From the NCBI RefSeq assembly GCF_046105845.1, contig NZ_CP151004.1: a stretch of DNA of 64,000 nucleotides. One strand, 5' to 3'. The position numbers and the translations under genes were made by a program. How positions within the stretch are numbered: position 1 is the first letter of the stretch; every line of letters begins with the position of its first letter. Below are positions 20,772 through 20,803 of the stretch, one piece after another. The notes under the pieces were generated by a model that did not search any database, was not told where the DNA came from, and saw only the letters and a program-made list of their open reading frames with translations. Origin of the DNA: Escherichia coli. GTDB lineage: Bacteria > Pseudomonadota > Gammaproteobacteria > Enterobacterales > Enterobacteriaceae.

Positions 20772-20803
20772 AGCATAGTCCTTCCCCTTACGGGAAGGTC
20801 AAG
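20772..20803 (-). promoter_or_regulatory. cueO promoter with CueR (MerR-family) operator: -35 TTGACC, 19-bp spacer containing dyad CCTTCC-N7-GGAAGG, -10 TATGCT
   Basis: Dyad CCTTCCCCTTACGGGAAGG at 20780..20798 flanked on the minus strand by TTGACC and TATGCT with 19-bp spacing, typical of MerR-type promoters. Confidence 0.8.

Follow-up and report, generated by a model that had tools for sequence, protein, structure and literature searches.

A MerR-type CueR promoter upstream of cueO in Escherichia coli and its conservation among enterobacterial CueO orthologs

Within a 64-kb window of Escherichia coli DNA (the window being the whole stretch that was analyzed), the segment 20772-20803 is best understood as PcueO, the CueR-dependent, MerR-type sigma-70 promoter of the multicopper oxidase gene cueO, a reading to which we assign a probability of about 0.97. 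The initial annotation had claimed a MerR-type promoter with a CueR dyad upstream of cueO, and the promoter architecture, the identity with E. coli K-12, and the conservation across genera, which we computed here together with the identity of the downstream gene and the register shared with PcopA, all agree with it. CueR is a MerR-family sensor of Cu(I), Ag(I), and Au(I), whose targets in E. coli are copA and cueO. The cueO promoter is an already known element, the same as the textbook example, and brings no new biology: biochemical, genetic, and structural work on it goes back to 2000, and a comparative-genomics survey listed the same site in 2006 (PMC1526738). Its value here is for annotation, in that cueO keeps its native copper-responsive control region in this genome and starts at the ATG at 20726.

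Architecture of the cueO promoter

Read on the minus strand from 20803 to 20772, the site is C-TTGACC-TTCCCGTAAGGGGAAGGAC-TATGCT, with base 20803 lying one base past the -35 hexamer. Its elements are:

20797-20802, minus strand: -35 hexamer TTGACC of the cueO promoter (from a pattern search; the same hexamer occurs in K-12 PcopA)
20778-20796, minus strand: 19-bp spacer TTCCCGTAAGGGGAAGGAC, 2 bp above the sigma-70 optimum
20772-20777, minus strand: -10 hexamer TATGCT of the cueO promoter (from a pattern search)
20779-20799, no strand assigned: CueR operator, the 21-bp motif ACCTTCC-CGTAAGG-GGAAGGA, with its center at 20789 and the dyad core at 20780-20798

Promoters of the MerR type combine sigma-70-type hexamers with an over-long spacer of 19 (to 20) bp (PMC8169799; PMC9909328; PMC1526738), the 19-bp form being the MerR/CueR hallmark (PMC8169799; PMC9909328), and the core site of CueR is CCTTCC-N7-GGAAGG placed in such a 19-bp spacer (PMC8169799; PMC1526738). 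The dyad at 20780-20798 is a perfect 12/12 match to this published core. The initial annotation had placed the dyad inside the spacer; the spacer length and the dyad sequence hold, but the upstream arm CCTTCC shares the last two bases of the -35 hexamer, such that the dyad and the -35 overlap by 2 bp. In CueR-type sites the 3' end of the -35 box and the center of the 21-bp site are 7 bp apart (PMC5045206), and seven bases likewise lie between the operator center at 20789 and the -35 3' end at 20797. Both patterns are unique in the 64-kb window even with one mismatch allowed, viz., TTGACC-N19-TATGCT (0.24 matches expected by chance) and CCTTCC-N7-GGAAGG (0.09 expected), and for an exact 12-base self-complementary pattern we estimate about 0.004 chance occurrences in 64 kb. 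The cueO site thus displays an over-long spacer, the CueR core dyad, a fixed register, a downstream copper-homeostasis gene, and conservation in relatives. A scan for canonical promoters returned none within 20400-21300; since it accepts only spacers of 16-18 bp, this does not count against a promoter here and fits one with a deliberately over-long spacer.

Relationship to PcopA and other MerR-type promoters

The comparison with the copA promoter dyad that the initial annotation proposed bore out the assignment. The K-12 copA promoter is TTGACC-TTCCCCTTGCTGGAAGGTT-TAACCT and shares with PcueO the -35 hexamer TTGACC, the 19-bp spacer, the register of the dyad CCTTCC-N7-GGAAGG, whose first two positions are the final 2 bp of the -35, and a -10 of the form TAnnnT. 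The two differ in the central N7 (CCTTGCT in PcopA versus CGTAAGG in PcueO), in the two bases that join the dyad to the -10 (TT versus AC), in the -10 itself (TAACCT versus TATGCT), and in the downstream gene, which for PcopA codes for a Cu(I) efflux ATPase. The archetypal MerR system, the mer promoter-operator of Tn21/Tn501, resembles PcueO in being a sigma-70 promoter with a 19-bp spacer that houses a dimer-binding inverted repeat, and in its switch from repression to activation via DNA distortion (PMC9909328; PMC7911910). It differs in the half-site sequence, in the metal sensed (Hg), and in the divergent gene, which is the regulator itself in mer and yacC at cueO, with cueR about 375 kb away in K-12.

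These parallels raise the question of whether the operator mainly serves another MerR-family regulator, or whether a chance match to a CueR site sits in a constitutive promoter: spacers of 19-20 bp are common to many MerR-family operators (PMC9909328), and the signals of CueR and HmrR hardly differ (PMC1526738). However, the half-sites are exactly those of the published CueR core and the register is that of PcopA, while the E. coli ZntR promoters have a 20-bp spacer (PMC7911910). A PcueO-lacZ fusion on identical sequence answers to CueR and copper (PMC9396075), and a 12/12 dyad in the exact register is expected by chance only about 0.004 times per window. Hence, we consider use by another MerR-family regulator, and likewise a fortuitous match, to be very unlikely, and retain the assignment to CueR.

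Identity with the K-12 promoter and the predicted mechanism

Over its 165 bp, the yacC-cueO intergenic region shows 100% identity with that of E. coli K-12 MG1655, with the alignment reaching the first codons of both genes and the promoter showing no difference; the K-12 locus also has the same gene with the same neighbors gcd, yacC, and speE. A match to the region, annotated there as cueO and yacC, is found in 5,424 of 5,426 complete E. coli genomes. Of 5,422 E. coli records, 5,259 carry the 44-bp core with 100% identity; the surrounding 401 bp reach at least 99% identity in just 383 E. coli records. Since the window is identical to K-12 PcueO at every base, experiments on the latter apply directly. 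The early characterization of this promoter in K-12 (as the yacK/cueO promoter) is reportedly due to Outten et al. in 2000 and Yamamoto and Ishihama in 2005. Later papers cite the earlier K-12 work (PMC8169799; PMC9396075). In one of these, a PcueO-lacZ fusion carrying the K-12/BL21 sequence, which is identical to that seen here, is copper-inducible and CueR-controlled (PMC9396075), i.e., the opposite of the lack of copper or CueR dependence that the initial annotation had named as its refutation. Deletion of PcopA and PcueO together abolishes the specific CueR-DNA FRET in vivo, with the PcueO deletion (-74 to -1) covering the dyad, the -10, and most of the -35 as defined here (PMC9396075). 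Nothing contradicts the reading as PcueO.

A mechanism can be proposed on this basis, in which the binding of CueR, the induction by copper, and the distortion of the DNA at PcueO are carried over from the literature on K-12, including the cryo-EM account of the core site in its 19-bp spacer (PMC8169799) and reviews of CueR and MerR (PMC5329002; PMC9909328). With the -35 and -10 placed 19 bp apart, 2 bp over the optimum, RNA polymerase would be unable to engage both hexamers at once, and basal transcription would therefore be low. A CueR homodimer would bind the CCTTCC-N7-GGAAGG that fills the spacer; in the absence of Cu(I), the bound protein would keep the DNA in a repressed shape, in line with the repression by apo-CueR on the same dyad (PMC5329002). 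Once CueR has bound Cu(I), Ag(I), or Au(I), it would kink and undertwist the spacer; the hexamers would then take up the spacing and phase found in a 17-bp promoter, and transcription could start near 20765. The resulting mRNA would carry a leader of about 39 nt with a Shine-Dalgarno sequence, and translation from the ATG at 20726 would yield CueO for export by the Tat pathway.

The regulator itself lies elsewhere: a tblastn search for a CueR-like ORF found none within the 64-kb window. The K-12 cueR gene maps to 513,993, some 375 kb away from cueO and therefore beyond any 64-kb window around the latter, and the presence of cueR in this genome is assumed. The claim in the initial annotation that the regulon member is intact therefore holds for the control region, which is identical to that of K-12, with the provisos that cueR is outside the window and that the cueO coding sequence has an additional arginine codon (see below).

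The start codon of cueO

The gene downstream of the promoter is cueO, as the initial annotation had it: its product matches the NCBIfam equivalog NF008205 with 976 bits against a cut-off of 525. The features bearing on its start are:

20764-20766, minus strand: predicted cueO transcription start, placed by geometry 6-8 nt downstream of the -10
20732-20737, minus strand: Shine-Dalgarno sequence AAGGAA of cueO, 5 nt upstream of the ATG
19173-20726, minus strand: cueO coding sequence including the stop codon, 517 aa, with an ATG start and the Tat signal MQRRDFLK

From these positions, we infer a 5' UTR of about 39 nt with a start of transcription near 20765. The ATG at 20726 is the RefSeq-annotated start and opens the twin-arginine signal MQRRDFLK, whereas the longest ORF starts from a TTG at 20765 (20763-20765, minus strand), 13 codons upstream of that ATG. 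This TTG is without a Shine-Dalgarno sequence and comes exactly 7 nt after the -10, i.e., at the predicted +1, which leaves no room for a ribosome-binding site; a gene caller that favors the longest ORF would thus extend cueO too far here. The ribosome-binding site of the ATG is a conserved feature, with AAGG, GAGG, or GGAG occurring within the last 16 nt of all 58 distinct ortholog cueO 5' UTRs. An in-frame stop codon between the -10 and the ATG is present in just 19 of the 58 distinct leaders, and the stop-codon test of the start accordingly does not discriminate. The argument for the ATG rests instead on the promoter geometry, the conserved Shine-Dalgarno sequence, and the Tat motif, and the use of the promoter in the initial annotation to anchor the choice of start codon was reasonable.

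The coding sequence shows an in-frame 3-bp insertion at 20634-20639 (minus strand, codons 30-31), with CGC CGC in place of the single CGC found elsewhere. The additional residue (Arg31, in AAERRPTL) falls two to three residues past the predicted cleavage site of the Tat signal. It was found in none of 5,426 complete E. coli genomes, where the best matches are 52/55 with a 3-base gap, and is absent from all of the roughly 80 orthologs of other species; relative to E. coli strain 7/2, the cueO coding region differs by this extra Arg codon and three substitutions. Either this allele is a rare one or the insertion is an error of sequencing.

Conservation of the promoter across genera

A cross-genus set that was not selected for the promoter was assembled by scanning one genome per species with the back-translated CueO N-terminus MQRRDFLKY. 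The 89 loci recovered comprise 82 CueO orthologs, six unrelated Tat-signal proteins that served as negative controls, and one multicopper-oxidase-like gene from a member of the Hyphomicrobiales. A script counted 81 of the CueO orthologs, the further one (L071) being cut at 19 aa by the end of its locus, and the promoter was tested in the 80 of these 81 with at least 120 nt of upstream sequence. The orthologs are from Enterobacterales, including Escherichia, Citrobacter, Enterobacter, Kosakonia, Lelliottia, Leclercia, Buttiauxella, Morganella, Franconibacter, and other genera.

The architecture TTGAC[CG]-N19-TAnnnT, with the dyad in the same register, is present in 79 of the 80 CueO loci, and TTGAC[CG]-N19-TAnnnT in none of the six non-CueO control genes with the same N-terminal peptide. 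Across the 79 loci the -35 is TTGACC in 76 and TTGACG in three, and the -10 is TATGCT in 52, TAAGCT in 19, and TAGCCT in five, with three other TAnnCT variants occurring once each. The dyad has no mismatch in 10 loci, one in 49, two in nine, three in nine, and four in two. Information content across the genera forms an island over the stretch from the -35 to the -10, with a peak at the CueR operator and low values on both sides, and the ATG follows the -10 at a variable distance, ranging between 29 and 65 nt. Both features indicate that the promoter-operator is conserved as a unit and not merely as part of a generally conserved region. Co-variation of the operator half-sites was not used as evidence: most symmetric positions are invariant, and only the pairs 6/16 and 10/12 of the 21-mer vary on both sides, weakly, with 55 and 91 of 2000 shuffles, respectively, reaching the observed symmetry.

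This pattern also bears on whether the palindrome acts as an RNA or DNA hairpin, i.e., an intrinsic terminator or an mRNA stability element, instead of an operator. The operator 19-mer can indeed fold, on either strand, into a hairpin with a stem of 7 bp and a loop of 5 nt (-13.1 and -15.4 kcal/mol); however, the z-scores of these hairpins against shuffled sequences are just -2.2 and -1.6, and no Rfam family matches at the dyad. A terminator scan gave no match at 20772-20803, with no U-tract or T-run following the stem on either strand, and an intrinsic terminator was rejected, as the combination of a G+C-rich hairpin and a T-run is lacking. Moreover, the site is located between divergent genes and upstream of both, so no transcript needs to end there, and the dyad is upstream of the predicted +1 of cueO. 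What is conserved across genera includes the hexamers and their exact 19-bp spacing, which is more than the stem alone would explain. We regard a hairpin function as exceedingly improbable, and the palindrome as the CueR operator of PcueO.

Several variants within this set are of note in their own right. A perfect dyad is the minority state, being found in 10 of the 79 cueO promoters (several Escherichia, Citrobacter, and one Franconibacter genome), while most cueO promoters of Enterobacteriaceae have an asymmetric right arm, GGAGGG. In Pseudescherichia and Morganella both arms of the operator are changed (CCTTGCC...GGCAGGG), hinting that the operator may be co-evolving with the regulator. The sole ortholog with a 20-bp spacer is that of Leclercia adecarboxylata NCTC13032 (L057; TTGACC-TTCCGGCAAGGGGGAGGGTT-TATGCT), which has one extra G in a G-run relative to Leclercia sp. 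29361 (L050); this additional base may be genuine or a homopolymer sequencing error. Beyond the Enterobacterales, the metagenome-assembled Hyphomicrobiales genome (L004) has GCTTCC-N7-GGAAGG between TTGCGC and TAAGGT at 19-bp spacing, about 59 nt upstream of an ORF with MQRRDFLK...LPIP that codes for a distant multicopper-oxidase-like protein; by its sequence, this alphaproteobacterial site resembles a promoter of the CueR/HmrR type.

The divergent gene yacC

The genes around the promoter are gcd (plus strand, 16718-19126), cueO (minus strand), yacC (plus strand), speE, speD, yacL, and acnB. The divergent neighbor of cueO is:

20892-21239, plus strand: yacC, coding for a pilotin-like lipoprotein (NCBIfam equivalog NF037975, 197 bits)

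The pair has been named the yacC-yacK divergon (PMC1526738). In the window, 89 nt (20803-20891) separate the yacC ATG from the cueO -35, and the promoter of yacC must lie directly beside the CueR site. The arrangement is a constant one: yacC is divergent from cueO in all 71 ortholog loci with enough upstream sequence, and its start codon is 78-117 nt from the cueO -35 in 70 of these 71. Given this close and universal divergence, CueR could also modulate the yacC promoter, with the operator serving a true divergon in which binding and bending by CueR act on both sides. We consider this unlikely, and a literature search on copper regulation of yacC found no report; if true, YacC, an uncharacterized pilotin-like lipoprotein, would be the product of a third copper-responsive gene.

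Plasmid copies of cueO and other elements

A plasmid-borne cueO was also noted. On pE6474.2 (NZ_CP116983.1; about 4685-10302 of locus L003), cueO and a 3' fragment of gcd are situated between two copies of ISVsa5, an IS10-family element. At the junction near 6000 of this locus the IS end abuts the gene (...ATCAG/TGCTCAACG) inside the cueO -10, and the insertion has removed the -35 and the CueR dyad. The same ISVsa5-cueO junction (at least 97% identity over 401 bp) recurs in 10 PLSDB plasmids from E. coli and E. fergusonii, isolated from pigs, pork, and humans. IS10 has an outward promoter. As the start of the ISVsa5 transposase gene faces the plasmid cueO, the latter is probably expressed from this outward promoter independently of CueR. 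A literature search for cueO together with ISVsa5 found no paper.

Elsewhere in the window, three small-RNA families, all unrelated to the cueO promoter, scored above the Rfam gathering score: tp2 at 34891-35004 (plus strand, 103 bits), STnc40 at 46871-46940 (minus strand, 82 bits), and PssrA, the "Plasmid-encoded Shigella sRNA A", at 52587-52676 (minus strand, 106 bits). As the last of these matches is chromosomal, it may point to an insertion sequence or a mobile fragment.
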